Positions 8,478 through 43,713 of a stretch of DNA of 64,000 nt are shown in pieces (the stretch's first letter is position 1; each line of letters starts with the position of its first letter). Origin of the DNA: Thermoplasmatales archaeon (lineage in GTDB: Archaea; Thermoplasmatota; Thermoplasmata; Thermoplasmatales; Thermoplasmataceae). The DNA is taken from positions 1 to 64,000 of the forward strand of contig DAIDBH010000010.1 in NCBI GenBank assembly GCA_027310185.1. Direction: 5' to 3'. The translations under genes were made by a program, and so were the position numbers. The notes beneath the pieces were generated by a model. That model saw only the letters and a program-made list of their open reading frames with translations, searched no databases and was not told where the DNA came from.

Positions 8478-8909
8478 ATGGGAGTGAATATGAATAGGGA
8501 AGATGAGTTAATTAATGAAATTTCAAACAGTAATTTAAAAATTCAGGAGCAGCTTAAGGATATCAGGGATGAAACTTTTCACAATAATATTTCAATGATA
8601 GTGGATTATTTTATAGCAAATTTGAAGAGCATGAATGATGCACTTAAAAGGAAGGAATCACTTGTGAAACTTGAAAGGGGGCCTGATATCAGGATATACA
8701 ACCACAGGAAGGTGGAAGAACCAGATCCAGAGAGTATCCAGAGCGTTCTTCTCTTCATCTCAAGCACCCTTGGAAGGGAGCACGACATTGTTCTTGGAAC
8801 TATCAGGAAATATGAGGAGGGAAAGGATTATCTTGAAAATTATGCAAGCAACATTGAAAGACTCAGAATAAGGAGCGAGAACCTCTATCACGACCTGGTG
8901 GAAAGATAA
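8478..8909 (+). CDS. Hypothetical helical protein, possibly degenerate ferritin-like
   Basis: 143-aa ORF with genome-like composition; stop overlaps the dtdA start (TAATG). Confidence 0.65.
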   Translation: MGVNMNREDELINEISNSNLKIQEQLKDIRDETFHNNISMIVDYFIANLKSMNDALKRKESLVKLERGPDIRIYNHRKVEEPDPESIQSVLLFISSTLGREHDIVLGTIRKYEEGKDYLENYASNIERLRIRSENLYHDLVER

Positions 8910-9664
8910 TGGAATACGATCCTGTCTTTATTGCAACAAAGAGTGACGAGGCCAGCTTGAGTATTTACAACTATTTCATTTCCAACGGTCCCGATCTGGG
9001 AAAATATATACTTACTGAGGGGAGACTGCCAATGCTGGAATTCCCTGAGAAACTGATAAATAATGAGGATAAGGTTATTATTTTTCTAAGCAGGCATTCA
9101 TCGAAGGCAAAGGTGAATTCCATTACGGTACACCCAGTGGGGAACTTCTCAACAAATGATATTGGTGGCAGGGAAAGGAATATTGCAAGAAGTGCACCCG
9201 AAATACAGACTGCAATACTGAGAAAGATGAGTGAGGTATACAGTGGAGAAAAATATCAGGTGACCTTTGAGGCAACTCATCACGGTCCAGAGTCCGGTAA
9301 TAGACTTATATTTGCAGAGATAGGCACTGAACCGGAAAACTGGAAAGACAGTGAGGCATTGCGGACCCTGTTCCTGGGCGTGAGGGATGCTTCACCGAAA
9401 AATTACCCGAATTATGTTGGTGCTGGAGGAGGGCATTATGCGCCAAAGTTTTCCTCCTACGTGCTGAAGGAAAACGTCAATGTTGGCCATATTATTTCCA
9501 AGTTCAGGATGGATGAGATCGGAAAAGATGAAGTCCTGATGGCGGTTGAAAAAACAGAAAAATGCAAGGGATTCCTCGTTGATAAGAAAGGAATAAAGTC
9601 TGCGGGCATGGGCATGATAAGGGAAGTCGCAGATCAACTTGGCCTGGAAATCATAACAATATAA
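8909..9664 (+). CDS. dtdA: D-aminoacyl-tRNA deacylase (archaeal DTD2)
   Basis: SRHSS, TVHPVGN, EATHHGP, EIGT, GGGHYAP. Confidence 0.92.
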   Translation: MEYDPVFIATKSDEASLSIYNYFISNGPDLGKYILTEGRLPMLEFPEKLINNEDKVIIFLSRHSSKAKVNSITVHPVGNFSTNDIGGRERNIARSAPEIQTAILRKMSEVYSGEKYQVTFEATHHGPESGNRLIFAEIGTEPENWKDSEALRTLFLGVRDASPKNYPNYVGAGGGHYAPKFSSYVLKENVNVGHIISKFRMDEIGKDEVLMAVEKTEKCKGFLVDKKGIKSAGMGMIREVADQLGLEIITI

Positions 9665-9912
9665 ACTTCTTCAGTTTCCTGTATATAACGGAGAAAATGA
9701 GCGAAATTTCGACTCGAAGACTCCTTAATAATTTTTAAGAGAAATAAAAATTAATTATATAATATAATAATTTATATATTTATATGTATAGATATTTAAA
9801 ACTACCGGAAAACAGCAATTTTACCGCTTATAGATACGTTGAAATTTTAATAAGATATATTTAAATAGAATGTATTCATTATTACATGACCGAGTGGTCG
9901 GTGTATTAAATA

Positions 9913-10866
9913 ATGGAACAGATTACAGAGGAAGAAAAACCTCCTGGATTGACACCTCTTTTCAGGGCCAGAAATATAGAAAGGTTCCTGAAAATGAATA
10001 AAGTATTTTTTAAGTTTGAGGGTGCCAGCATCACGGGAACACAAAAGGACAGGATTTCAAGCCTTCATGTCAGGAGGGCAATAGAACTGGGTTACGATAC
10101 CATCGCAGTTGCAACATGTGGTAATTACGGGGCATCAGTATCTTATTTTGCATCTGCTTATAAGATAAACTCTGTTGTAGCGATTCCTTCCTTCTATACT
10201 AACGCAAGAAGTGATGAAATTTATGGAAACGGAGCAAAGATCATCCAGAAGAACATGAAATATGAGGATCTCGTTGAGTATATAAAGGACAAATCAAGGG
10301 ATGAGAACTGGTATGACTGCAGCCCTGGATCTGTAAATTCAATAGTAGACATACTTGGTTATGAGAGTATTGCAAATGAGATAGTACAGCAACTTGGACA
10401 TTCACCAGCATATGTTGCAGCACCGGTAGGTAATGGAACCACACTTGCCGGAATATTTAGCGGTTTCAAGAAATTGTATCTGAAGGGTATAATCAATAAT
10501 ATCCCGAAATTCATTGCTTCCTCAACATCACTTGGCAATCCTGTTGTTTATTCCTGGAAACACGGATTCAGGAAGATACAGGAACTTGAGCCATCAACAA
10601 TAATTGAGACAGAAACCAATGAACCACTTGTTTCATTCCGTGCCATGGATGGCCAAAAAGCACTGAATGCAATTTATGAAAGCAAGGGGGTTGCAATAGG
10701 GGTGAATGATCAGGAAATGGTGAAGTTTTCAAAGATGATAGAGAATCAGCAATCCATCCAGGTTCTTCCAGCCTCTGCATCAGCCCTGGCAGCAGCTCAT
10801 AAGAACTTAAACAGCAGAAATGTCAGTGGCGAGGTTGTTGCTGTGCTGACCGGAAGGGGTCATTAA
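9913..10866 (+). CDS. Threonine-synthase-like fold type II PLP enzyme
   Basis: KFEG..ITGTQKDR (PLP Lys), ATCGNYGAS, PVGNGTT, VLTGR. Confidence 0.85.
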   Translation: MEQITEEEKPPGLTPLFRARNIERFLKMNKVFFKFEGASITGTQKDRISSLHVRRAIELGYDTIAVATCGNYGASVSYFASAYKINSVVAIPSFYTNARSDEIYGNGAKIIQKNMKYEDLVEYIKDKSRDENWYDCSPGSVNSIVDILGYESIANEIVQQLGHSPAYVAAPVGNGTTLAGIFSGFKKLYLKGIINNIPKFIASSTSLGNPVVYSWKHGFRKIQELEPSTIIETETNEPLVSFRAMDGQKALNAIYESKGVAIGVNDQEMVKFSKMIENQQSIQVLPASASALAAAHKNLNSRNVSGEVVAVLTGRGH

Positions 10867-11897
10867 TGGGCGGAGCAGTTATACTCGCAGAAGGGTTCCT
10901 TGGCTCCACCTATGGGAAAACTGCAAATGGCCTGTGCAGGTTTTCAAGGAGATATAATATACTGGGTGTCATAGACAGCACCCATTCTGGGGCAGATATA
11001 CAGGAGATTGTGCCAAAGGCCAGGCCCGATATAAAGATCATCTCAACAATGGGGGAAGCCATAGACCTGGGTGCAGACACCTTGATAGTGGGTGTTGCAA
11101 CAGATGGAGGTTTTCTTCCTGAATATTTCAGGCCTTTTGTATCAAGGGCAATAAGGGAGAAGATGACTGTTGTCAGTGGCTTGCATCAGTTCATATCAGA
11201 TGATCCAGAATTCAAAAAACTCAGTGAACAATCCGGTTCCGAGATAGTTGATGTCAGGAAGATGTTCATGATGAGGAGGGACTTTTTTACAGGCAAGATC
11301 TGGGATGTCAAGTCTAAAAAGGTTGCAGTACTGGGTACAGACAGCGCCATAGGTAAGAGGACAACTGCAGTTTACCTCAATGAAGAGGTAAAGAAGCTCG
11401 GTAAGAGTTCGGTAATGATAGGTACAGGCCAGACTGCATGGATGCAGGGATTTCCATATACAGTGGTAATCGACTCAATGATAAACGATTTTGTGGCAGG
11501 TGGAATAGAAAGTGCCATAGTTGAGGCGTGGGAGAAGGAATCGCCAGATTTCATGTTCCTTGAGGGGCAGGGTTCAGTTCTGCATCCTGCATATCCTGGA
11601 AGCTTTGAAATAATCGCGGCAGGGAAACCTGATGGCATAATACTGCAGCATGCTCCAACAAGGGTTGATTATGACGGTTTTCCTGGAATAAAGATTCCGC
11701 CGGTTGAAAAGTTTATCAGGATACTGGAGGAGTTATCAGACAAAAAAGTGATGGGCATTGCGATCAACAGGGAAGGAATGACTGAGAAGGAGATTAGCGA
11801 TGCTAAGAATGATCTGGAAAACAGGTATGGTCTCCCGGCCTTCGATCCCCTCTATGACTCAAAGAGAATGGCAGAAATCATAGTTTCAGGGTTGTGA
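10866..11897 (+). CDS. DUF1611 family P-loop protein (DgcN-related)
   Basis: GKTANGL, SGLH, GTDSAIGKRTT, TGQT, EGQGS..HPAY. Confidence 0.85.
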   Translation: MGGAVILAEGFLGSTYGKTANGLCRFSRRYNILGVIDSTHSGADIQEIVPKARPDIKIISTMGEAIDLGADTLIVGVATDGGFLPEYFRPFVSRAIREKMTVVSGLHQFISDDPEFKKLSEQSGSEIVDVRKMFMMRRDFFTGKIWDVKSKKVAVLGTDSAIGKRTTAVYLNEEVKKLGKSSVMIGTGQTAWMQGFPYTVVIDSMINDFVAGGIESAIVEAWEKESPDFMFLEGQGSVLHPAYPGSFEIIAAGKPDGIILQHAPTRVDYDGFPGIKIPPVEKFIRILEELSDKKVMGIAINREGMTEKEISDAKNDLENRYGLPAFDPLYDSKRMAEIIVSGL

Positions 11898-13291
11898 TCT
11901 TGCTTTTCCTGGATAGGATCAGGTGCTTTGATGCACTTGAGATAAAAGTTGATTCCATCTCTAAAAATTTTGCAAAGATCAATATTATTTTGGATGACAA
12001 GGAAAAATTCCTCCTGGAATTCAAGTATGATCATGATGTCGAGCTCAATGAAAACCTCGCAGGTCTTATGGGTGCCGTAGCAGCCATCAATTATTCCCTG
12101 TTTACAGGAGAAATAATATTTGATTTCCCAACGTCTGAAGTTGACCGGGATATGATAGAAGAAATGGTGAAAATCAATAATACTGAAGTCTTTGTAAACC
12201 GTCTCTGCAGGATAAGATACCCGTTCTTCAGAAGCGAATTTCTGCCCACAGAAGAAGAAATAACAAAGGAAAATGCAATTGGAAAGACAAGACTCACATT
12301 TAAGTCTGGATATGTTGATAATTATTCGGGGAGCGGGAACAGCAGATCTGCAATAATGCTTTCTGGAGGAAAGGAAAGTCTTCTTTCATATGGAATGATG
12401 AGGGAGATCACTGGAAATGCACTGCCATATTTCTTCAATGAATCTGGAGGTCACTGGAAAGCAGCCAAGCATTCACATGATTATCTGAGCAGGGTTACTG
12501 AGAGTGCGAGGGTATGGTCTAACATTGACAGGTTCTATAATTTCATGAATCACAGGATGCCAATTCTTGATCCGGTGGTTTCATTTTCATGGGCTGACGA
12601 TTATCCTGTACAGCTCTTCCTGTTTCCTATTTACCTGTTTGCAACACTACCTTCTCTCAGGGTTAAGGGAATAACTGATATCATAATGGGAAATGAAATG
12701 GATGATCCTGCAGAGGAACCACCATACAAGGGAATAAAACACTATTTTGGAGTGTATGATCAGAGTCCTGATTTTCAGAGGAGATTTTCCAGGTATACTC
12801 AGGAAAAGGGTTTCGGTATAACCCTCTGGTCAGCCCTTTACAATATCTATGGCTCCGTGGTTGAGGATATACTGGTGAACAGGTATCATGATCTGTACTT
12901 ACTGCAGAGATCATGCCATTCATGCAGGTATGAGAATGGGGATGTCTATCCATGTGGAAAATGTAGTAAATGCCTTGGTGTTAGGTTGTTTATCGAGTAC
13001 GCTAATGGAGACCCTGAAGAAATCCACTATCCATCGAAAGACAGTCTTCTGAACATGGTAAAAAACGAAAGAATGAAACTTGATCCTGAAGAACTCATAT
13101 TTCTCACAGATGGAATTAAGAATGGATACTACGATATGGATACACAGATAAGAGGCATTCACCTGCTTCCGGGAGAGAATGAGATAATGGAGCAGGTACC
13201 GGTGGAATACAGGGAGGGCATATATTCCATAATATCAGAATATACAAATGGAAACTGGAAACTTGATGGTGATGAATGGATCAGGTACTAG
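11894..13291 (+). CDS. Uncharacterised PP-loop ATP pyrophosphatase with Cys cluster (MurL/QueC-like architecture)
   Basis: MLSGGKESL PP-loop, MGNE, QRSCHSC...PCGKCSKC; GTG start overlaps the upstream TGA. Confidence 0.7.
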   Translation: MILLFLDRIRCFDALEIKVDSISKNFAKINIILDDKEKFLLEFKYDHDVELNENLAGLMGAVAAINYSLFTGEIIFDFPTSEVDRDMIEEMVKINNTEVFVNRLCRIRYPFFRSEFLPTEEEITKENAIGKTRLTFKSGYVDNYSGSGNSRSAIMLSGGKESLLSYGMMREITGNALPYFFNESGGHWKAAKHSHDYLSRVTESARVWSNIDRFYNFMNHRMPILDPVVSFSWADDYPVQLFLFPIYLFATLPSLRVKGITDIIMGNEMDDPAEEPPYKGIKHYFGVYDQSPDFQRRFSRYTQEKGFGITLWSALYNIYGSVVEDILVNRYHDLYLLQRSCHSCRYENGDVYPCGKCSKCLGVRLFIEYANGDPEEIHYPSKDSLLNMVKNERMKLDPEELIFLTDGIKNGYYDMDTQIRGIHLLPGENEIMEQVPVEYREGIYSIISEYTNGNWKLDGDEWIRY

Positions 13292-13844
13292 AATCTATGT
13301 CAAAGTCAAGGTAAACCTTTTCAAGATCATCCGCGCTCTGGCATCCTGCATAGGATTTAAGCAGTTCTATGTTCAGTTCCATGAAGGTATGACCCCATGT
13401 GAATTTTCCCATTACCTCCTTTGCCTGATCAGCGTATCCCGTTATGAAAAGGGCAGCCGCCACAGCTTCAACAGAAGATAGCTTATTGAATTTCCCGAAA
13501 TTAACCGGATTTCCAGCCATCAGTACCGGAAGCTTCCTTTCAGTCCCTTTCCTGTAGGAGCCTAGAAGATCACCCAGATTCCATGAACCTTCTATAATAC
13601 ATATCCCCTTCCGGCTTACCTGTGATCTGTCCACAGGCAATAATGTTTTTTCCGCATCGTACCTCAATACGACATATCCACCCATCTTGTCCCTGTTTAT
13701 CTGTTCAGCTAAATTGAATTTCTGTAATTTCTTCATGGTTGATTTTGCAGGATCGTCCTGATGAAGATATATGAATCCTATTCGGACACTTTTTTTTATA
13801 TTTTTTTCCAAGGAAGAAATTATCACCTTCAGACATATAACCAT
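13281..13844 (-). CDS. tsr3: 16S rRNA aminocarboxypropyltransferase Tsr3 (DUF367)
   Basis: HQDDPAKST.KKL, EGSW, RKLP.LMAGNPVNFGK..KLSSVEA, FTWGHTF; start uncertain. Confidence 0.9.
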   Translation of the reverse strand: MVICLKVIISSLEKNIKKSVRIGFIYLHQDDPAKSTMKKLQKFNLAEQINRDKMGGYVVLRYDAEKTLLPVDRSQVSRKGICIIEGSWNLGDLLGSYRKGTERKLPVLMAGNPVNFGKFNKLSSVEAVAAALFITGYADQAKEVMGKFTWGHTFMELNIELLKSYAGCQSADDLEKVYLDFDIDSST

Positions 13845-14254: not shown

Positions 14255-15049
14255 TCAGAAAACGTTCCTGAATTGGGGATCATCCACTTCACCACTGACT
14301 GTTACGATCTCGTTCTTCTGATCGTGACTCATGACTAGATTGAATTCTTCCCTGATTGCCTTCTTTAATAGTATCTTTTTTGCATTCATTGATTTCAGGG
14401 GTTCCGAATCTATGGCAGTTAACCTGTTTGGCTTAAGCTGGAATGTTGTCGGCGCAAGATCGCCCAGAAACATTAACTTCAGGTTTTCACTGTTGAAGAT
14501 TATTGCCATATGCCCTGTCGTGTGACCTCCGGTGTGAATTAATTCAAAATTTCCTGTCCTGGTATCGGAAAAAATGGGGATGAGGTTAGAAATGTTTTGC
14601 TCGCTGTTTTTGTATGTATAACTTGCTGCAGCGAAGTCTTCAGGTTTCATGAAATTATCAATCTCAAGATGATGTGCATATGATTTGCTTCCAGAAAGGT
14701 CTGTGAATGAGTGGCCCATATGATCAAAATGAAGATGGGTGTGAAAAATTGCATCAAATTTATCTATTCCATTTTTTTTCATGTAATTTTCCAGGTTCCT
14801 GTTAGGTTTTGCGGCGAACCACTTTTCCAGGTATTTCCCTGGATTATTTCCAATACCCGAGTCTATGAGATAATGCCTGTCATCTATTGAGATTACACAT
14901 ACATTGCAGTTCAGGCCTATTCTATAATTATCATTTGGCTGAAATTCCTTTGACCATACATTTTTAGGTGTAACTCCGAATGCAGCCCCTGGATCAAGAG
15001 AGAAGGTCCCATCGTTTATAACATCGAATTTTGTGGTCTCACTACTCAT
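14255..15049 (-). CDS. MBL-fold metallo-hydrolase (YtnP-like)
   Basis: LDPGAAFGV.PK..W, THLHFDH, GGHT.GH, GD, SHD. Confidence 0.9.
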   Translation of the reverse strand: MSSETTKFDVINDGTFSLDPGAAFGVTPKNVWSKEFQPNDNYRIGLNCNVCVISIDDRHYLIDSGIGNNPGKYLEKWFAAKPNRNLENYMKKNGIDKFDAIFHTHLHFDHMGHSFTDLSGSKSYAHHLEIDNFMKPEDFAAASYTYKNSEQNISNLIPIFSDTRTGNFELIHTGGHTTGHMAIIFNSENLKLMFLGDLAPTTFQLKPNRLTAIDSEPLKSMNAKKILLKKAIREEFNLVMSHDQKNEIVTVSGEVDDPQFRNVF

Positions 15050-18438: not shown

Positions 18439-21400
18439 CTATCTCCTCCTTTTTGAATTTATAACAACGGCAGCTGCTATTATTATGACCAGTACGATCA
18501 GGGTTAAGTAAAGGTATATATAATTTGGACTCTGCTGCTTGCTTTCTGACAGCGAGATATTAACTCCATATGATCTGCCTTTCTGAACCGTAATATTCAG
18601 GTATTTCGCGTTATAACCAGAGGATGATGCCTTGAGAACAAAGCTTCCATAGGTGGTGGTTATATTGAAGTGGCCATTTACTGATACCTTTACAAGCTTT
18701 CCGTTGAAGAATAGTGTCGCGTCAGAAGGGGAAACCGTACCGTGAATGTATGAATATCGTATGTAATCGATCTGTACTGTTATATTCCTACCACTTATGG
18801 ATATGAATTTGTTGAAATTCTGGTTGTAAAAGAGTGTTGTGTTCCAGGCATGGTATGAATAGGTTCCGTTGGCTGCATATACAGTTATGTTATTTCTGTC
18901 AGATGAATATGCTGTCCCGTCAAATGTAATGTTCCATACTGTTCCCTTCGTAAGATTTGCCTCAATGAAATTTACAATGAATTTTACCTTTCCAGTTGCC
19001 ATGTAGAGAACCAGTCCCTGTTCCTGGCTTCCTGATTTAATGCCAATACTGTAACTGCCGGTTCCATTCTGCGAATAGATCAGGTTTGTTGCACTTTCAC
19101 CTGTCTGATCAATCGATTCATTGAATGGACTTATCCGGGGAATTATCCATTGCCCTTCTTCATTTTCAACATAACTCTTAACATTAGCGGATGTTGAATT
19201 ACTGAATGTTCCAAGGTATCCTGAAGGCCCTCCAACAAGACCGAATTCAGGGTCCAGACCACCCTGATATTTATTGTTGGGAAATGGCCCGTTGTAAATC
19301 AGTTTACTTTGATAATAATATGAATAGTTTCTTTCCCCTATTATGAATGCAGCCCCTGTAACGTTCATTTTTATCTCTTGCCTGTTAACGAAAAACTTGA
19401 GATAGCTATTCATAGGGTTTCCACTGTTTATGAGCTGTGTTGAAATATTGAAGCTGTGCGGTAGAGTGATTATCCTACCTGAAGGGAAGGTATAGTGATA
19501 TACCGTGGAAGTTTGATATATACCAAAAAATGGGTAATTAACCCAACCAGTATAATTCACCACATATCCTCCTGAAACTGTTCTGTTCAAATAAATTACG
19601 TTCTGGATCCAGTAGAGCGGCTGTCCCATCTCATTGGAGAGAAATAGATTTTGTTGAATGGACGCGTTATAGAAAGTGTTTAGAGAACCTGTTGAGTTGT
19701 ATGACCTGACATTGAGTGACTTCAGTGTGAAATTGTTATCAACTCCCAAAAGATCAGATTGATTGTGCCTGAAATTTCTGTTCAGGACATAAACGGTTAG
19801 GTTATAGGCATTGATTGAACCCCATCCATCAAGTAAACTGTATCCGTATCTTGCCTGGTATAAGTGATTCCTTCCTGTAGAAACAGGAAGGAATGGAAGT
19901 GCAGGTAACGTGGAATTGTATATTCCTGTATCTATATATCCTGATGTGCTGTTGGAAACTTCCTTTTCGAACTGTTCTGTTCCAAGCTTATACAGCAATG
20001 GATCCAGGAAGCCGAGCCGGCTGTCATTGTTCTCGCCTAACACAAAATCGATATCTGCAATTATTCCAGCTGTGACCGGTGATGCAACACTTGTTCCCCA
20101 TGCGTATTCAAAACGTCCGCCATAGGATGCGTTAGTTGCGTCGTAGGTATAACCTGATATTGAAATCGTTAAGAGAGTGTTATTGGCTATGGCTGAAACA
20201 TCAGGAACCCCTCTTCCCTTTCCCTGTATTACATTATTTGCTGACGAATCGCTTTGCCAGACAGGTTCCTTGAGACATGTGTCGATCCCAGAGCTTGTGC
20301 CGTATGGACCGCCTAACTGTGTATCTCCTTTCGGCACATACCAGTTTTCCTGTGACTGTATTTCAAGAGATACTGGGTTCAATTTGAAGCTTGTTCCTCC
20401 AACTGCAACAACACCAAAATTGTTGTACCCAATTACTGATGGGAACTCCACATCTGTTCCAACCCACTTTGTACTGTTAGCATTATCTCCAGCATCACCT
20501 GAAGATGCCAGAACGGTGATCCCCCTTGCCTGTGATTCCATTACGTCTTCATAGTAAGCCGTACAGTTCGAGTTACAGCCCCCCCAAGAATTAGATATGA
20601 CTGAAACATTGTTTAACTTTGATTTTTGGCTGCCCGGGTTCAGTATGTAGTTGAAGGCAAGATCTAGATTGTAATAGGAAGAACTGTTTCCGTATACGTT
20701 GTATATGGTTGACCCTGGTGCTGTACTTCCAAGCATTTCCATGTCCAGTGTGTTTTCGATATTTGCTCCAGTGCTGTCATACTGTGCAAGATGCCCGGGT
20801 GATACTGCTCCGTTGAGTGGAACCCCGATAACCGTGGGGTGGGGTTCCCCTGCAGGCATTGTTTCGTTGAAATAACCATACACATTTGATGGTACAAATG
20901 ATCCTACTCTTTCATCATGCACAAGATTTCCATATGGTGTGCTCATGCTTGTTCCATTGTACTCTCCACCCCATAAAATTGTGGCTTCAACCGATGAAGT
21001 GGGATAGCCATATTCCCTGAAGAGTGTTCCCTCATTATAAGCAGACTGGAATTCAGGCCCATAGAAATACTGGGTATTGCCTACGCAGGCTGGAGAGATA
21101 ATACTTCCCTGCAATAAGGTGTTCACTGAAGTGTTCTGCTGAATCATGACTTTGTGGTTGAGGTTAGTGCCCAGCACATATTGTGAATAATTCGAGAGTC
21201 CCGTTATGGATGTTATTTGATTGTTGAAGAATGAGGGTATCTCAGGGATTCCTGTAGCTGCATAATAGTTCTGTGACCCATTTACAAAATCTGCTGTTTG
21301 CACCCTGAACAAATTATCCACCGATTGCGTCGTGGAGCTGAATGTAAGTATAGATCTTCCTCTGTATGATGTTATATGATCTATTCCGTTTGCCTGAAGA

Positions 21401-21825
21401 TACTTTATGAAATCATTATAGATTGTCTTTGATGGTTCAAATTTCCTGTCAAACTGAGTTCGTGAAAGATACTGGTGATATTGTGATGAGTTTTTATCTG
21501 ATATATTTGACAGTAAGTTTTCCAGTGCTGAAATATTTGAAAATTCAAAGCTTACAAGAATATTTTCGCTGTTGTTACCCTCTGTTGCGTTAACTTCTTT
21601 CGGACTCTCTATATGGTATTTTTTGGATGCGCTAACATAGTTTCTATAAGGAACTAAATTTGAGAAAATGACACTATCATTCTCCATTGATTTTTTTTGT
21701 GAACCGGATGAATGGACAATCAGTCCTGAAATCTGCTCCTGTCCTGATAGTACTGCCATGGATGAAATAATAAAAACAAGAACCATAAGGATGGAAATGA
21801 TTTTTTTCATGCTTTTCAACATCAT
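18439..21825 (-). CDS. Membrane-anchored S53 (sedolisin/kumamolisin) serine-carboxyl protease with pro-domain and thermopsin-like/PEGA extensions
   Basis: Signal peptide, pro-kumamolisin-like YHQYLS...F, ENTLDME, SSGDAG, GTSVASP, SIQQN/YWIQNV segment, C-terminal TM followed by KRRR. Confidence 0.88.
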   Translation of the reverse strand: MMLKSMKKIISILMVLVFIISSMAVLSGQEQISGLIVHSSGSQKKSMENDSVIFSNLVPYRNYVSASKKYHIESPKEVNATEGNNSENILVSFEFSNISALENLLSNISDKNSSQYHQYLSRTQFDRKFEPSKTIYNDFIKYLQANGIDHITSYRGRSILTFSSTTQSVDNLFRVQTADFVNGSQNYYAATGIPEIPSFFNNQITSITGLSNYSQYVLGTNLNHKVMIQQNTSVNTLLQGSIISPACVGNTQYFYGPEFQSAYNEGTLFREYGYPTSSVEATILWGGEYNGTSMSTPYGNLVHDERVGSFVPSNVYGYFNETMPAGEPHPTVIGVPLNGAVSPGHLAQYDSTGANIENTLDMEMLGSTAPGSTIYNVYGNSSSYYNLDLAFNYILNPGSQKSKLNNVSVISNSWGGCNSNCTAYYEDVMESQARGITVLASSGDAGDNANSTKWVGTDVEFPSVIGYNNFGVVAVGGTSFKLNPVSLEIQSQENWYVPKGDTQLGGPYGTSSGIDTCLKEPVWQSDSSANNVIQGKGRGVPDVSAIANNTLLTISISGYTYDATNASYGGRFEYAWGTSVASPVTAGIIADIDFVLGENNDSRLGFLDPLLYKLGTEQFEKEVSNSTSGYIDTGIYNSTLPALPFLPVSTGRNHLYQARYGYSLLDGWGSINAYNLTVYVLNRNFRHNQSDLLGVDNNFTLKSLNVRSYNSTGSLNTFYNASIQQNLFLSNEMGQPLYWIQNVIYLNRTVSGGYVVNYTGWVNYPFFGIYQTSTVYHYTFPSGRIITLPHSFNISTQLINSGNPMNSYLKFFVNRQEIKMNVTGAAFIIGERNYSYYYQSKLIYNGPFPNNKYQGGLDPEFGLVGGPSGYLGTFSNSTSANVKSYVENEEGQWIIPRISPFNESIDQTGESATNLIYSQNGTGSYSIGIKSGSQEQGLVLYMATGKVKFIVNFIEANLTKGTVWNITFDGTAYSSDRNNITVYAANGTYSYHAWNTTLFYNQNFNKFISISGRNITVQIDYIRYSYIHGTVSPSDATLFFNGKLVKVSVNGHFNITTTYGSFVLKASSSGYNAKYLNITVQKGRSYGVNISLSESKQQSPNYIYLYLTLIVLVIIIAAAVVINSKRRR

Positions 21826-21877
21826 CAGTTAAAATATTCTGATCCTATAAAATGCTTCTGTGACATCCTCCCTCCAG

Positions 21878-22090
21878 CTAACAGGGAGCTTCCCGTTTCA
21901 TTGATCGGAGTTCCCATTGCTGGCAGAGCTCCGATCTCCACGGACGTGATTTTTGGAGTGCCCATCCTACGGCGATCAATCCGGCATTATGGATATTTAT
22001 TGCTGCTTTCAGGGTACGGTCCAATGTAATACTGCATACTTTGCAGTTGTATATGCGATCTGATAGTTTCAGTTCCTTCCTTATGTTACG
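21878..22090 (-). pseudogene. tnpB: tnpB C-terminal fragment
   Basis: ELKLSDRIYNCKVCSITLDRTLKAAINI resembles the TnpB Zn-ribbon and RuvC-III (DRD.NAA.NI), with the catalytic Asp lost. Confidence 0.8.
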
Positions 22091-22117
22091 AGGAAGTATG
22101 AAGGGGGCCACGACTTC

Positions 22118-22423
22118 CCCTTCCACAGTTCTATCTTAACTTCTGGGAAGTTACGCTGTATCTTCCTTGATGTTATTGTTTTGACTGCGTTGATGAATGT
22201 AAAGGAGAGGTGTGGTTTTGAAAAGCATGTGGAAGTGATCCATATCGCATTCTATGTCCAGAATATCAACATTGAATGTTTCTGCTATTTCCATGGTTTT
22301 TGTCCTGAGAAGATCCACGATGGCATCATTGGCAAATACCTTCCTCCTTTACTTTACAACCTGTATGAAGTGGTAGTATAATGAATATACAGAATGTGCC
22401 CCTTTATCCAGTTTATATGGAAT
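22118..22423 (-). pseudogene. tnpA: IS200-type Y1 transposase tnpA pseudogene
   Basis: Manual translation PYKLDKGAHSVYSLYYHFIQVVK*RRKVF...DHFHMLF (HUH motif), then a frameshift into FINAVKTITSRKIQRNFPEVK..LWKG. Start is ATT, stop at 22349-22351, catalytic Tyr helix deleted. Confidence 0.88.
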
Positions 22424-22619
22424 AGTTACTGTATTATATAATATATCATTAGGATTTAGTTCGCCTTCATCCTCTCTCTTGCGAAAGGGGACTTCTCGCC
22501 CACATATGTTAAACTGATTTCATCTATCGTTTTTCGTTTGATGTTTTAAATCTAGAATGGGTATAAAAATTAAAGATTCCATTGAAAATGGCTATATAAT
22601 ATAATTACACTACAGAACA

Positions 22620-25600
22620 ATGGTATTTTACAAACATGCGCCAGACATCATGGGTAACGAATTTCTTTTTGTTTCCAATGACAAGATCTGGGTAGGTGAT
22701 TTGAATAGTGGAACCTCAAGAGTTGTAGTGTCCAATGAAGGCATAATAAATAATGCAAGATTTTCTCCAGACGGAAATAAGATAATTTTCAGGTCAATGC
22801 GGGGTAAGGATGCATCGCTAGCCGATCTGTATGTGTATGACAGGGTCGGTGGCATTGTCAAAAGAGTCACTTTCCTTAACGGTAAAAGTGTCCCGAGAAG
22901 AATGTTCACAGATATAGCAGGATGGAAAGGAAGTACACCTATCATCTCAACAGATGCTATGTCATCCTTTGGGGCACTTACCTTCTTTTATGAACTTGAT
23001 GCAGACACGCTCAACCTGAGTCCCCTCAATCTTGGCCCCGGTTCTCACATAATGTTCCATGGAGACGATGTGGTCATAGGAAGATATACATATGATATGC
23101 CACACTGGAAGGGCTATAAAGGTGGAACCAGAGGTGTTATCTGGTCAGGAAAACAGGGAGGCAAATTCAGCAAGATAGTTGACCTGGATGGACATGTGTC
23201 ATCCCCATGCATCCTTAAAGATAGGGTCTTCTTTGTTTCCGATCACGAGGGAACTGGACAGATATATTCCATTGGAATAAAGGGAGGAAAATTGACAAAG
23301 CATTCAGACTTCAAGACATATTATCCGAGGCATCTTTCATCCAATGGGGTACTACTTATGTATTCAATGGGTGGAGAGCTATTCACACTGAACCCTGAAA
23401 AAAAGGAGGAGAAGAGGCTGGAGATCAGGATGAGTTCCGGGATAACTGTTCCCAGACCAAAGTTTCCGGATCCTGCAAATTATCTTGAGGAATATTCCCT
23501 GAACGGAAACGATGATACATATGGATTCGTCCTTAGAGGGAGGGGTGTCTTTACATCGGAAGAAATGGCTCCACAGTTACATATCCCATCACACGGAAGA
23601 GTTAGGCTGATCAGGTTCCTGGATGAAAAAAGGGTCTCTTACGTAAGGCAGGATAAGGATGGAGAATTTCTATGCATTTCTGAAATTTCAGATCTGTCGA
23701 AGCACACTCAGCTGGAGAAAAACATTGGATTGATAGATAACATATTTCCCTCACCGGATGGAAAGAAGATAGCGGTGACAAATATCCTGTTTGAACTTTA
23801 TATGGTAAACCTGGAGAATATGTCATGCGATCTGGTTGATGAAAGTGAAGCTGGAAAGATAAGGGATGTTGCATGGTCAAGTGACTCCAGCAGGATTGCG
23901 TATACGTTCCCGTACATGACTGGAGGATTCGGGCAGAGAGACGGTTCCATTGTTAAAAGTGCAATCCTTGATAAGATGGAGAAGAAGGAAGTAACAGAGA
24001 GAACAGCTAATGATTACTCACCATCCTTCGATCCATCCGGTTCCTATCTTTATTACCTTTCTGATAGAACGTTTGATCCAGTGGAGGACAGGGCAACTTT
24101 CAACTATTCGTTCCCCCTGATGACCAGACCGTATTACCTGAAGATGGACGATAGAGAGTTTTCACCTACGGTCAGGATACCTGAAGCAATGAAATTAAAA
24201 CCAGAGAGGGAGAACGCAGGCTCTTTTACTGACTCATTACCCATAGATTCTGGCAATTACAATTCCCTTAAGGCCATAAAGGGAGGACTGCTTTACCTCT
24301 CCTACAGGGCAGAGGGCCTGTTGAAGAACGCAGCTTCTGGAAGGCAGAGAGCTGGTAAACTTGTTTTCTTCAGTTTTGAAACAAAGAAACCAAAGACTGT
24401 TGCAGAAAAAGTCCTCGATTTCAGAGTTTCCAGGGATGAGAAGTCAGTCCTGATCAGGAAGGAAAAGAACAAGCTGTTCAGGCTGCAGGTGAAAATTACA
24501 AAGGATTTGGTGAGTGGCTTTGATGAGGAAAAGGAGATCCACCTTAAGAACCTGAAGATAAGGATCGAGCCCCAGGAGGAGTGGAGACAGATGTTCAACG
24601 AGACATGGCTCCTGGCAACAAGCTTCTTCTGGAAGGAGGAATTTGCAACGAGGAATGCGAGAGAAATATATGAGAAATATGAGCCACTTGTCAGCATGAT
24701 CACTACGAGATTTGAACTGTCTGAAATACTGAGAGAAATGCAGGGGGAGTTCAGGACTTCACATTCATATGAAACAGGAGGAGACTTCCTTTCTTCTGAT
24801 GCCATTCCCATAGGGCAACTGGGAGCTGATTTCCTCTTCAAGGGAAAGAAATACTACATAAAGAAGATCTATCACGGAGACCTCTCAAACGATAATGAGA
24901 AGAGTCCATTGCTTCTTGGTGGTTTCAGGGAAGGTGACGAGATCGTTTCAATTAATGGTGAATCCCCAGGAAATGAGGGAAAAACAATAGATGAAATATT
25001 ACTGAACCTACCTTCGGATATAATCAGGATTGACGTTAAAACTACTGACAAAAAGATGTTTTCCAACTACGTTAAAACCATTCCTGATGACAGGTATCTG
25101 AGATACAGGAACTGGGTGGAGGAGAACAGGAAGATGGTGCATGAAAAAACTGGTGGAAAGGTTGGATACGTTCATATACCCAACATGATGCTTGATGGAC
25201 TTGCAGAATTCTACAGGCTCTATACAAGGGAATTCAAGAGATTTGGCCTCATTGTTGATGTCAGGTTTAACGGAGGTGGGAATGTTTCGCAACTCGTCCT
25301 TGAAAAACTCATGAGGGAGAGAATTGCCCTTACCCACCCCAGAATGGGACAGGATTCTCCCTATCCATCATATTCTGTTGAGGGGCCAATGATTGCACTC
25401 ACCAATGAGAATGCAGGATCAGACGGGGATATATTCAGCCACTCATTCAAGTTGCTGAGCCTGGGACCGCTCATCGGCACAAGAACATGGGGAGGCGTGA
25501 TTGGGATAAGTCCTGAAAGAAGGCTTGCGGACGGCACTCAGGTGACCCAGCCAAGGTTTGGGATGAAGTTCAGGGATGTTGGATTTGGTGTTGAAAATTA

Positions 25601-25727
25601 CGGAACAGACCCCACTTATGAAGTAGAGATCAGCCCAGAGGACTGGAACAATGGAAAAGACGCACAAATGGAGCTGGCCCTGAGCAAAATAATGGAAATG
25701 ATCGAACTCAGCGAAAAGAAGAAATGA
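22620..25727 (+). CDS. tri: Tricorn protease (S41 family)
   Basis: PHWKGYKGGTRG, beta-propellers, TSHSYE, PDZ, DVRFNGGG, AGSDGD, RTWGG. Confidence 0.95.
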   Translation: MVFYKHAPDIMGNEFLFVSNDKIWVGDLNSGTSRVVVSNEGIINNARFSPDGNKIIFRSMRGKDASLADLYVYDRVGGIVKRVTFLNGKSVPRRMFTDIAGWKGSTPIISTDAMSSFGALTFFYELDADTLNLSPLNLGPGSHIMFHGDDVVIGRYTYDMPHWKGYKGGTRGVIWSGKQGGKFSKIVDLDGHVSSPCILKDRVFFVSDHEGTGQIYSIGIKGGKLTKHSDFKTYYPRHLSSNGVLLMYSMGGELFTLNPEKKEEKRLEIRMSSGITVPRPKFPDPANYLEEYSLNGNDDTYGFVLRGRGVFTSEEMAPQLHIPSHGRVRLIRFLDEKRVSYVRQDKDGEFLCISEISDLSKHTQLEKNIGLIDNIFPSPDGKKIAVTNILFELYMVNLENMSCDLVDESEAGKIRDVAWSSDSSRIAYTFPYMTGGFGQRDGSIVKSAILDKMEKKEVTERTANDYSPSFDPSGSYLYYLSDRTFDPVEDRATFNYSFPLMTRPYYLKMDDREFSPTVRIPEAMKLKPERENAGSFTDSLPIDSGNYNSLKAIKGGLLYLSYRAEGLLKNAASGRQRAGKLVFFSFETKKPKTVAEKVLDFRVSRDEKSVLIRKEKNKLFRLQVKITKDLVSGFDEEKEIHLKNLKIRIEPQEEWRQMFNETWLLATSFFWKEEFATRNAREIYEKYEPLVSMITTRFELSEILREMQGEFRTSHSYETGGDFLSSDAIPIGQLGADFLFKGKKYYIKKIYHGDLSNDNEKSPLLLGGFREGDEIVSINGESPGNEGKTIDEILLNLPSDIIRIDVKTTDKKMFSNYVKTIPDDRYLRYRNWVEENRKMVHEKTGGKVGYVHIPNMMLDGLAEFYRLYTREFKRFGLIVDVRFNGGGNVSQLVLEKLMRERIALTHPRMGQDSPYPSYSVEGPMIALTNENAGSDGDIFSHSFKLLSLGPLIGTRTWGGVIGISPERRLADGTQVTQPRFGMKFRDVGFGVENYGTDPTYEVEISPEDWNNGKDAQMELALSKIMEMIELSEKKK

Positions 25728-29149: not shown

Positions 29150-30358
29150 ATGGCAGGAAAGATAAAAGAGATAGAAATATACAATGTAAGCGAGAAAACA
29201 TCTGAAAAATCATCACCATGGAGTTCTACCATGATCATTGTCAAGGTAACAACGAGTGACGGCATAGTTGGATACGGAGAGGCACCAACAACCCTGATGA
29301 CACTTCCAGTGAAGGAAAGTGCTGAGGAAGTAAAAAGGGTTTTCCTGAATAAGGATGTAAATGAAATCTACAAAAACACAATGGAGTTTTACAAGCATTC
29401 ATTCTATCTTTCAAGGTCCATGGAAGCTACATCAGCCCTGAGTGCTGTGGAAATGGCATGCTGGGATATAGTTGGGAAAAGCTGCAAGGAACCCGTTTAC
29501 AATCTTCTCGGAGGCAAGATGAGGGATAGTGTCAGGGCTTACAGCAATGGCTGGTATTCCGATTGTGTCACCGCTGATGACTTCGTAGACAAGGCAAAGG
29601 AGATAAGGAAGAAGGGTTTTGATGCCGTAAAGTTCGATCCCTTTGGAAATAATTATGATACAATTAACAAGAAAGGACTGGAAAGCGCAGAGAACATTGT
29701 TTCAGGTCTAAGGGAATCATTTGGGGACTCCATGGACCTGCTAATAGAATTTCATGGAAGATTCTCCATGGAAGCTGCAAAAAAGGCCACACAGATCCTT
29801 GAGCCATACGACTGCTTCTTCTTTGAGGAACCCCTTCATCCTGAACTTGAAATGAGGCTTCCTGAGCTGAGAAGTACTGTGAATACTCCAATAGCACTTG
29901 GAGAAAGAGTTCTTAATGCAAGAGATTTCATGAGGAATATTGTTGAAGGCAAGGTGGATATAATCCAGCCAGATGTAACGAACTCAAGAGGAATTCTTGA
30001 ATCCTTCAAGATTGCCACAATTGCTGATGCATGGGGAATTCCAGTGGCATATCACAATGCCTTTGGACCAGTCCAGACTGCAGCCACCCTTAACCTTGAT
30101 ACAACAATTAATAATTTCATCATACAGGAGAGTTTTGAGGAATCCTGGCCAGACTGGAAGAAAAAGCTGCTTAAAAGTGGATATAAGCTGGAAAACGGTC
30201 ATTTCAAGCTATCTGGGAAACCAGGTCTTGGAATTGAGATGGATGAAAAGTCTTTAAAGGATCATATGGTTAATGGAATGGAACCGTTTGATCCAGAATC
30301 ACCCCCATGGGTAGTGTCTGGTACATATGTAGGGGAGGGAACCGATGGAAAGCAATGA
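29150..30358 (+). CDS. gad: Gluconate/galactonate dehydratase (enolase superfamily)
   Basis: SSPWSST, YSNGWY, KFDPFG, IEFHGRF, EEP, GER, HNAFGP. Confidence 0.85.
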   Translation: MAGKIKEIEIYNVSEKTSEKSSPWSSTMIIVKVTTSDGIVGYGEAPTTLMTLPVKESAEEVKRVFLNKDVNEIYKNTMEFYKHSFYLSRSMEATSALSAVEMACWDIVGKSCKEPVYNLLGGKMRDSVRAYSNGWYSDCVTADDFVDKAKEIRKKGFDAVKFDPFGNNYDTINKKGLESAENIVSGLRESFGDSMDLLIEFHGRFSMEAAKKATQILEPYDCFFFEEPLHPELEMRLPELRSTVNTPIALGERVLNARDFMRNIVEGKVDIIQPDVTNSRGILESFKIATIADAWGIPVAYHNAFGPVQTAATLNLDTTINNFIIQESFEESWPDWKKKLLKSGYKLENGHFKLSGKPGLGIEMDEKSLKDHMVNGMEPFDPESPPWVVSGTYVGEGTDGKQ

Positions 30359-43152: not shown

Positions 43153-43713
43153 TTGAGTGGAGAATTAACAAGAAGTCAGAAAAATTTTTTGAACAAACTT
43201 ATGGAGGAATCCTCTGAAAGACTTGAAGCTTCAGAAAAATTCATGAGAAATCTTGGAAAGGGAGAGATATCTGAACTGAGTGTACAGGAGGCATCCAGAC
43301 TTATTGATGAACTGCAAAAGATAAAGACTGAGGGTGGCAGTTCCATTGGAGGCAATGGGCCAACGAAGAAGCAGAAAACATTCATTTCAAACTTGCAGGA
43401 TAGTGAAGAGAGAATAGCGTTCACAAGAAAGTATCTCGAGAAGGCTGGGAAGAAAAGTGTAGATGAGTTGAATGTGAAGGAGGCATCGGCCCTTATAGAC
43501 GGTCTAATGGAAAAGAAAGGAGATCCTGAAAGATCAAGGGCACAGACAGATTTCCAGGCAACACCAAAGCAGATAAATTATATCAGGAGTCTTCAGAAAT
43601 CTGAAAAAGATCAAAAAACAGTTACAGAGTACCTGAAATCAATAGGCAAGAAGTCCCTGGATGAGATCACGAGAACAGAGGCAAGTACAATTATTGAAAA
43701 ACTTAAAATTTAG
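43153..43713 (+). CDS. Hypothetical protein made of three ~60-aa tandem repeats
   Basis: Motif T..Q..(F/Y)(I/L)..L ... GK....EL...EAS.LI..L occurs three times; GAGGTG SD before TTG. Confidence 0.8.
   Translation: MSGELTRSQKNFLNKLMEESSERLEASEKFMRNLGKGEISELSVQEASRLIDELQKIKTEGGSSIGGNGPTKKQKTFISNLQDSEERIAFTRKYLEKAGKKSVDELNVKEASALIDGLMEKKGDPERSRAQTDFQATPKQINYIRSLQKSEKDQKTVTEYLKSIGKKSLDEITRTEASTIIEKLKI

Follow-up and report, generated by a model that had tools for sequence, protein, structure and literature searches.

A conserved operon of a ThrC-like enzyme, a DUF1611 protein and a distant MurL relative in Thermoplasmatales: a candidate amino-acid pathway

The DNA analysed here, which we call the window, is a 64,000-nt stretch of contig DAIDBH010000010.1 from the assembly of a Thermoplasmatales archaeon (GCA_027310185.1; genome of 1.88 Mb in 19 contigs, 99.5% complete). 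Its GC content is about 0.36-0.44. The open reading frame (ORF) listing shows three head-to-tail, overlapping genes on the plus strand, referred to below as A, B and C. Gene A (9913..10866; 317 amino acids, aa) encodes a ThrC-like fold-type-II pyridoxal 5'-phosphate (PLP) enzyme of the NF004996 (PRK06381) subfamily (PALP, E 1.6e-49). Gene B (10866..11897; 343 aa) encodes a DUF1611 protein with a Rossmann-like N domain and a P-loop C domain. Gene C (11894..13291; 465 aa, GTG start) encodes a protein with an N domain, a QueC/Cap9-like PP-loop domain containing a Cys cluster, and a C-terminal region. An earlier reading of the window, which we call the sequence-only reading, had taken these genes as a candidate module for D-amino acids or their peptides. 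The coupling on which it built can be read directly from the DNA: the genes are co-oriented, and stop and start codons overlap as TAATG (10864-10868) between A and B and as GTGA (11894-11897) between B and C. Translation of C could alternatively begin at an in-frame TTG (11900).

Upstream on the plus strand lies dtdA (8909..9664), which encodes D-aminoacyl-tRNA deacylase (PF04414, E 8.1e-59). Downstream, a Tsr3-type gene on the minus strand (DUF367/Ribo_biogen_C; 13281..13844) converges on C and overlaps its last 11 bases. The three genes had been described as lying directly behind dtdA, which is right as to order and orientation. As the sequence reads, an AT-rich spacer of 248 bp (9665..9912, plus strand) separates dtdA from A; the two are therefore not translationally coupled, and the compact unit is the three genes, with dtdA merely a neighbour. 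The spacer is probably the operon's own promoter region. A sigma-70-type promoter scan found nothing above chance, a null result to be expected with an archaeal host; promoter and terminator scans were at or below shuffled expectation (12 found against 15.2 expected, and 3 against 4.3). RNA contigs from one metatranscriptomic sample span 9956-13803 with zero differences and bridge both junctions. Positions 9707-9907, in the gap between dtdA and A, were left uncovered by contigs of runs X1 and X2 (one sample, one study), which is no evidence for separate transcripts.

The arrangement is conserved well beyond this genome. A GTDB scan with one genome per species gave 325 confirmed relatives of C, and all locus counts below refer to the best 80 of these 325. 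B is upstream of C in all 74 loci with room for it, and adjacent on the same strand in 72 of the 74; A adjoins B in 66 of 71. When start codons are estimated, A and B overlap or lie no more than 10 nt apart in 67 of 68 loci, as do B and C in 55 of 66. An upstream dtdA on the same strand is found in 49 of 62 loci with room, and tsr3 in 64 of 80. Three Bathyarchaeia loci (L072, L077, L078) keep A-B-C and have neither dtdA nor tsr3, so the dtdA link is Thermoplasmatales synteny. The sequence-only reading had allowed that this link might be coincidental, and had suggested the neighbourhood analysis in which the three genes do turn out to co-occur elsewhere, in Thermoplasmatota and in the three Bathyarchaeia loci.

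Presence and absence across 301 sampled Thermoplasmatota genomes agree with this. C occurs in 58 of them, including 18 of the 18 sampled from the window's own family. The 58 best matches to B (at least 449 bits) fall in exactly those 58 genomes, at adjacent coordinates, and 55 of the 58 also have an A above the NF004996 cut-off. Of the remaining three genomes, one has no A (G079), one meets a contig edge (G082) and one has a split copy (G162). An A-type gene occurs without C in five other genomes (G096, G143, G191, G247, G274). B-C also stands without A in five loci (L064, L069, L070, L079, L084); their genomes, whose completeness is not stated, have no NF004996 match at E up to 1e-30. B and C are a strict pair, A is dispensable to that pair, and the A-B-C arrangement is far more common than chance would give. 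One high-GC relative, with an otherwise intact cluster, carries a 901-aa NACHT/pentapeptide-repeat gene between A and B (L085, 7882-10584, minus strand).

Gene A passes NF004996, which is named 'threonine synthase' at NCBI, with 426.4 bits against a cut-off of 266, and its nearest solved structures are ThrCs, the closest being T. thermophilus ThrC (1uim, E 1.4e-24). A could on these grounds be the organism's threonine synthase, placed beside B and C for no functional reason, an idea to which we give hardly any credence. A fails the thrC equivalog TIGR00260 (79.9 bits, or 80.3 in the genome-wide scan, against a cut-off of 167.1), and the same genome encodes another ThrC-type paralogue (NF005035, 328.8 bits, cut-off 301) as well as IlvA and a CysK/M-like protein. 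In 14 control genomes, TIGR00260 passes in 14 of 14 and NF004996 in none. Where T. thermophilus ThrC has Arg160, a ligand of the O-phosphohomoserine phosphate, 64 of 71 A-family sequences have Asp. Of the 30 A-like proteins found near remote C relatives (described below), 28 have Ser at this position and none has Arg. For these reasons A is, judged by its sequence, a ThrC-like enzyme but not the housekeeping threonine synthase. Its distribution also speaks against threonine synthesis, since A tracks C in 55 of 58 genomes, recurs with the remote C family and has been fused to a GNAT domain. The name 'threonine synthase' is an annotation; we found no experimentally characterised member of the NF004996 subfamily, and an ESM Atlas search with A returned only generic PALP and 'threonine synthase' clusters.

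Alignment with 1uim bears out the motif differences from ThrC, and the retained catalytic lysine, that had been noted earlier. TGTQKDR and ATCGNYG in A replace TGSFKDR and ASTGNT of T. thermophilus ThrC. In the PLP-lysine motif T41-G-T-Q-K45-D-R47 (10033..10053, plus strand), K45 aligns with K61 of 1uim; in the loop T68-C69-G-N-Y72-G (10114..10131, plus strand), T68-C69-G-N-Y72 aligns with S84-T85-G-N-T88. N154, R160 and N188 of 1uim correspond to G139, D146 and N174 of A, the mapping of R160 being approximate with a gap close by. The PLP-binding lysine and the PLP-phosphate loop are kept, with K45 and N174 invariant (n=71). The full set of invariant residues in the 71 A-family sequences is T41, G42, Q44, K45, D46, R47, C69, G70, N71, N174, G175 and T177, Gln44 standing where ThrC has Phe. 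The remark that thr genes are missing nearby also holds, as the 52 ORFs of at least 100 aa in the window yielded neither a homoserine kinase nor a homoserine dehydrogenase domain.

BLASTP aligns T68-C69-G-N of A with S-A-G-N of the genome's own IlvA. HMMER in turn matches that part of IlvA to S81-S82-G83-N84 of S. pombe serine racemase (1v71), and the lysine of IlvA to K57; Cys69 falls at the position of Ser82. A review names Lys57 and Ser82 as the acid/base pair proposed for the racemase (PMC6411801). All 71 A-family sequences have Cys69, as do all 30 A-like sequences near remote C relatives and both GNAT-linked variants, so that 103 of 103 A-type sequences have Cys at the second-base position. 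Gln44 and Lys45 are likewise found in all of the 71 and all of the 30. We infer that Cys69 may act as a base and that A may have racemase activity. A FastTree phylogeny, rooted on IlvA and with no rows dropped, combined the 103 A-type sequences with the ThrC, IlvA and CysK/M paralogues of the window's genome. In it the A-type sequences form one clade apart from those paralogues (support 0.76), and the 30 A-like sequences near remote C relatives group together (support 0.98) in a subclade that branches from among the other A-type sequences.

Gene B carries both DUF1611 domains (PF07755, E 4.2e-62, 209.6 bits against a gathering threshold of 25; PF17396, E 5.6e-25, 88 bits against 22.6). Its solved relatives are 2g0t (TM0796, uncharacterised; E 1e-54), 7xrj (3.7e-37) and 2obn (3.6e-35). 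An alignment of 30 B sequences brings out a P-loop-like motif, G157-T-D-S-A-I-G-K-R-T-T167 (11334..11366, plus strand), in which G157, D159, A161, G163, K164, R165 and T166 are invariant and which we take to resemble the P-loop of BioD. DgcN is, to our knowledge, the sole characterised DUF1611 protein. Three papers describe it as an N-acetyltransferase acting on D-glutamate (PMC12363236, PMC10845958, PMC13759103). Some B proteins lie in open frames of about 525 aa (L084, G079, G227); the one in L084 (4408-5979, plus strand) has a Pfam-negative N-terminal extension of about 180-200 aa. The only MR_MLE gene of the window (29150-30355) was considered as a DgcA-type partner for B and dropped, being of the gluconate/galactonate-dehydratase type.

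Gene C has no Pfam match at E up to 10, no NCBIfam match and no PDB relative by sequence. Its 337 homologues at E up to 1e-3 are labelled 'metal-binding protein' or hypothetical, and those with a named host come from Thermoplasmata/Thermoplasmatota, plus one Bathyarchaeota. In 30 homologues, SGGKESL, NESGGHW, DRFY, E268-x-D-D, QRSCHSC and PCGxCxKC are invariant. The first of these, S157-G-G-K-E-S-L163 (12362..12382, plus strand; 30 of 30 homologues), is a variant of the SGGxDS-type PP-loop, and the stretch around it gives a weak profile match to the PP-loop proteins MJ0690 and TtuA. The Cys cluster C341-H-S-C344 ... P-C354-G-x-C357-x-K-C360 (12914..12973, plus strand), in which C341, H342, C344, C354, C357 and C360 are invariant, lies within the region that aligns with QueC and Cap9 and is probably a Zn site as in QueC.

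An AlphaFold (AF2) model of C built from an alignment of 30 homologues is of high confidence (pLDDT 92.7, pTM 0.91). In VIA-align, residues 149-372 match Cap9 (9nto_B; Z 13.2, root-mean-square deviation 2.6 Å over 176 aligned residues) and QueC (3bl5; Z 12.9, 3.1 Å over 188), with the PP-loop enzymes TilS, TtuA and NcsA at Z 8.6-9.0. Foldseek places QatC (E 1.7e-6), Cap9 (E 4.5e-5) and QueC on top. On the model, then, C has a QueC/Cap9-like PP-loop core. The N domain (residues 1-145), modelled alone at pLDDT 91.9, has no clear fold match; the best VIA-align hits reach Z 5.6 and have RNase-H-like topologies, and we make no claim of a new fold. The family assignments of the sequence-only reading therefore hold up for all three proteins, A as a non-canonical ThrC-like enzyme, B as DUF1611 and C as a PP-loop/Cys protein, the last with a remote kinship to MurL that is taken up below.

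These structural matches also raise the question of whether the target of B and C is a macromolecule (a protein terminus, for example, or a tRNA or rRNA base), with A supplying a small-molecule donor. The PP-loop enzymes Cap9, QatC, TilS and TtuA do modify macromolecules, and they are among the best matches to C. Genes for translation and RNA modification are also close at hand. In the window these are a class-I tRNA synthetase (Val/Ile/Leu-type), dtdA and tsr3. The A-less loci and the Aciduliprofundum locus L058, which has no upstream room in which to look for A, have downstream genes of matching sizes, and in L064 Pfam recognises these as an EamA transporter, a KsgA-type methylase, DUF655 and Pus10. 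However, these neighbours are lineage synteny and vary between lineages. None of the three proteins has an RNA-binding domain (THUMP, PUA) by Pfam, the N domain of C matches nothing clearly, and the fusion partners described below are small-molecule enzymes (amidohydrolase, methyltransferase, DUF1611). We consider a macromolecular substrate distinctly improbable.

More distant relatives connect C to MurL. In the ESM Atlas, 27 of 30 matches to C bear the MurL Pfam set PF26298 + PF26299 (score 0.96). A profile search of 1.8 billion representatives yielded 467 relatives of C at E up to 1e-3, and 13 of 20 scanned remote relatives weakly match the MurL model NF041275 (E 1e-10 to 1e-3, far below its 700-bit cut-off). 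In hhalign, the profile of C matches that of 16 remote proteins of about 450 aa with probability 100 and E 1.7e-40 over 219 columns, a match that spans the PP-loop and Cys-cluster core. NF041275 itself matches neither C nor anything else in the genome, even with E up to 10, and no NCBIfam model matches C; for that reason the link is at superfamily level only. Sequence profiles thus make C a distant relative of MurL that lies outside the MurL family proper. We know of no other characterised member of its enzyme class than MurL, which is known to us solely from bacterial cell-wall synthesis. According to two papers, MurL requires ATP and Mg and releases AMP, acts only from L to D and on the C-terminal Glu of an N-acylated peptide, and is proposed to work through an alpha-carboxyl adenylate (PMC5808125, PMC8788868).

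Gene fusions and variant clusters give some indication of the chemistry in which these proteins take part. Among 14 long relatives of C scanned for fusions, one metagenomic protein joins DUF1611 to C, the B-C pair in a single chain (P0136). Five join C to a creatininase-family domain (P0135, P0138, P0167, P0168, P0182), one joins it to a methyltransferase (P0137), and seven showed nothing further. In a relative with 68% GC (L088), the gene order is A, B, an 820-aa C-creatininase fusion, and an enolase-superfamily gene. The creatininase domain there comes closest to the peptidase MftE (164 bits, cut-off 172). The best matches of the enolase-type gene, neither of which reaches its cut-off, are L-Ala-D/L-Glu epimerase at 222 bits and DgcA at 158 bits. 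A genome without C has an A-B-GNAT operon (L091, 2815-5220, minus strand) with an ArgE/DapE-family (M20) deacylase and S-adenosylmethionine (SAM) synthetase nearby, and in another locus A is fused to a GNAT domain in a 491-aa protein (L092, 5165-6637, plus strand). The two GNAT associations would tie A to N-acylation, and the creatininase-family fusions with the epimerase-like gene of L088 would set C in a context of amide bonds and stereochemistry.

A metagenome scan with ten remote C-like proteins extended this picture; its counts refer to the best 80 of 407 loci. An A-like PLP gene, 39-46% identical to A of the window, is present in 30 of the 80, and DUF1611 in one. The A subfamily is therefore associated with both branches of the C superfamily. 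Neighbouring ORFs were scanned against Pfam in nine of these loci, which were hand-picked and are not a random sample. A Ddl-family ATP-grasp ligase was found in eight of the nine (L148, L172, L120, L105, L155, L093, L119, L101) and a GNAT in five (L148, L172, L120, L155, L101), while the ninth (L150) has DUF1611 and DapF instead of the Ddl-like ligase. The ligases of L148 and L120 score 179-196 bits against NCBIfam, with a cut-off of 243. Three neighbours were considered as further support and dropped: the MR_MLE gene of L120 is of the sugar-acid dehydratase type, the DapF of L150 passes the true DapF cut-off and may belong to ordinary lysine synthesis, and the amidohydrolase of L093 is HutI. 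In L093 (4784-6986) and L119 (3240-6783), remote C-like genes stand behind lysine-2,3-aminomutase-like radical-SAM genes together with one or two Ddl-like ligases and no A-like gene; these may be beta-amino-acid peptide clusters.

These neighbourhoods bear on what we regard as the main rival to our own proposal, namely that C amidates rather than epimerises. A would then make an amino acid, B would acylate or ligate it, and C would pass its carboxyl adenylate to ammonia or an amine. A capped amino-acid amide or a small peptide would form and no stereocentre would be inverted; such a product could serve as an osmolyte, as the tail of a cofactor or as a building block of the envelope. QueC and the amidotransferase of N-acetylglutaminylglutamine amide (NAGGN) synthesis pass an activated carboxylate to ammonia or an amine in this way. 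Among solved structures, those nearest in fold to C belong to QueC-type enzymes that form amides or nitriles, and the remote relatives of C stand by ATP-grasp ligases and GNATs and, in L093 and L119, by the lysine-2,3-aminomutase-like genes. We take these neighbours to be the usual make-up of compatible-solute clusters, with NAGGN and N-acetyl-beta-lysine as analogies. The C-methyltransferase fusion and the housekeeping-like presence of C in all sampled genomes of the window's family would also fit. Against amidation, the sole characterised sequence relative of C is an epimerase, the amidohydrolase fusions and the dipeptide-epimerase-like neighbour fit cycling or inversion better than the net making of an amide, and amidation gives no account of the invariant Cys that A has at the racemase base position. 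We think this route unlikely, if clearly worth keeping in mind.

The proposal that we favour, though tentatively and with somewhat less than even confidence, is that A-B-C is a small-molecule amino-acid pathway in which an amine is capped, a carboxylate adenylated and the alpha carbon inverted. While the families, fold, co-occurrence, fusions and signature residues are observed, every catalytic step, substrate and direction in the following scheme is inferred from them. The operon core would be the B-C pair. B would acylate the alpha-amine of an amino acid, and C would adenylate the free alpha-carboxylate of the resulting N-acyl amino acid. Adenylation would make the alpha carbon acidic, so that the centre could invert before the adenylate is hydrolysed, the net effect being a one-way, ATP-driven interconversion of L and D forms. 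A, with Lys45 and with Cys69 on the opposite face, would act on the free amino acid, which it might supply, racemise or remove. A deacylase would close the cycle; it would be the domain fused to C in some lineages, and the operon in this genome offers no candidate for it.

Read in this light, the D-amino-acid module of the sequence-only reading is partly upheld. It gains indirect support from the MftE-like fusion beside an L-Ala-D/L-Glu-epimerase-like gene in L088, the Ddl-like ligases by remote C relatives, the Cys of A at the serine-racemase base position and the dtdA upstream in 49 of 62 loci. It loses support in that dtdA is a Thermoplasmatales-only neighbour, and several further observations weigh against our proposal as a whole. 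B fails the DgcN equivalog NF041892 by a wide margin (163 bits, cut-off 480), and its BioD-like P-loop could mean ATP-dependent ligation rather than acyl-CoA transfer. The MurL model misses C. No Mur ligase adjoins C at the locus, MurD2 not being adjacent, and no enolase-superfamily N-acetyl-D-Glu racemase of the DgcA kind adjoins the operon. QueC, Cap9 and asparagine-synthetase-type PP-loop enzymes make amides or nitriles, and a predicted fold cannot discriminate these from epimerases. If A is a racemase, an epimerase C looks redundant, and five loci keep B-C and do without A. The genome has no creatininase-family match and the operon no deacylase candidate. The RNA contigs are compatible with co-transcription of A, B and C, although a single transcript cannot be proved from contigs. 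Finally, the activities and substrates given to the three proteins are predictions.

As to direction, we lean slightly towards salvage or detoxification of D-amino acids in peptide-scavenging, wall-less archaea, with L-to-D synthesis as the alternative. Salvage is suggested by the DgcN precedent, the adjoining dtdA, the amidohydrolase and epimerase neighbours and a protease-rich window, and also by a genome without a recognisable alanine or Asp/Glu racemase and without Ddl. Synthesis is suggested by the L-to-D direction of MurL, the Ddl-like ligases that stand by remote relatives and the finding that every sampled genome of the window's family has C. In the window's own genome we found no match to the alanine racemase or Asp/Glu racemase families and Ddl only below cut-off; DtdA is still encoded. 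The protease-rich stretches (18442-25724 and 40679-43057) hold a 1128-aa sedolisin/kumamolisin-like protein, a tricorn protease and an M1 aminopeptidase, a neighbourhood that fits a peptide-scavenging lifestyle.

Several other features of the window deserve a brief mention. A 143-aa ORF (8478-8909, plus strand) without a Pfam or NCBIfam match ends at the dtdA ATG (8909), and tblastn finds it kept upstream of dtdA in 12 of 80 loci (for example 90% in L005, 33-35% in L009-L013). Two genes downstream of the operon, a metallo-beta-lactamase (MBL)-fold hydrolase (14255-15049, minus strand) matches YtnP-type lactonase best, with 136 bits against a cut-off of 425, and is kept in the closest relatives only (L005-L009, tblastn). 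A 186-aa ORF (43153-43710, plus strand) has a match to the GemA domain of phage Mu (E 7.7e-9), an uncommon find on an archaeal chromosome.

In our literature search, in which subscription journals were thinly covered, neither this operon nor archaeal relatives of MurL came up, and no paper dealt with what the NF004996 subfamily does. The component superfamilies are known; their combination and host range are undescribed. What stands out is that archaea lacking peptidoglycan keep relatives of MurL and DgcN tightly linked to each other and to a ThrC-like PLP enzyme with signature residues. This suggests that lineages chiefly known for scavenging peptides and necromass have an amino-acid pathway not yet described, and it would correct the 'threonine synthase' name that NF004996 has spread across archaeal annotations. 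The three proteins are candidates for the handling or making of D-amino acids in archaea, and C could offer a second, simpler system in which to study the mechanism of ATP-dependent epimerisation. A bolder version holds that a MurL-type, ATP-driven L/D route, so far unrecognised, is widespread in heterotrophic archaea, wall-less ones among them (Thermoplasmatota, Bathyarchaeia), combining a Lys/Cys PLP racemase, a DUF1611 capping enzyme and a PP-loop epimerase that work on simple N-acyl amino acids. We regard it as doubtful. If it were true, MurL chemistry would be general and ancient rather than an oddity of peptidoglycan, and archaea would have a D-amino-acid metabolism of their own.

Each protein of the operon resembles a known system in part. 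With ThrC and with fold-type-II racemases such as serine racemase, A shares the PALP fold, the PLP lysine and the PLP-phosphate loop. It differs from ThrC in having Asp or Ser at the Arg160 position and Gln rather than Phe before the lysine, while by score it falls outside the serine racemase/IlvA branch. The second-base position of serine racemase is held in A by an invariant Cys, a nucleophilic or acidic residue. With the DgcN-DgcA pathway, in which a DUF1611 N-acetyltransferase works with an enolase-superfamily N-acetyl-D-Glu racemase, the operon shares both DUF1611 domains of B and the proposed logic of capping the amine and then inverting the centre, and relative L088 has a DgcA/dipeptide-epimerase-like gene. 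However, B is closer to TM0796 (2g0t) than to DgcN, a PP-loop enzyme predicted to consume ATP takes the racemase's place, and the PLP enzyme is additional.

QueC, Cap9 and QatC, the 7-cyano-7-deazaguanine synthase-like proteins, have the closest folds to residues 149-372 of C, including the Cys-rich metal knuckle, and the chemistry of QueC is one of carboxylate activation. Identity to C in the structural alignments is only 11-17%, no QueC family model was matched, and C has in addition a 145-aa N domain, a C-terminal region and other gene partners. MurL, a protein of about 450 aa, carries a PP-loop-like motif of the form G-K-[DE]-S and, towards its C terminus, a Cys cluster, as do the remote C-like relatives that weakly match its model; the N-terminal domain of C is without a clear match. 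ATP-dependent work on the free carboxylate of an N-acylated amino acid, with release of AMP, is what MurL does and what C, by analogy, may do. MurL follows an enzyme that forms the N-acyl bond (MurD2), a place that would be taken by B in this operon and by the Ddl-like ligases beside the remote relatives. MurL serves the bacterial cell wall, whereas the hosts of C are archaea without peptidoglycan and the partner of C is a DUF1611 protein rather than a Mur ligase.

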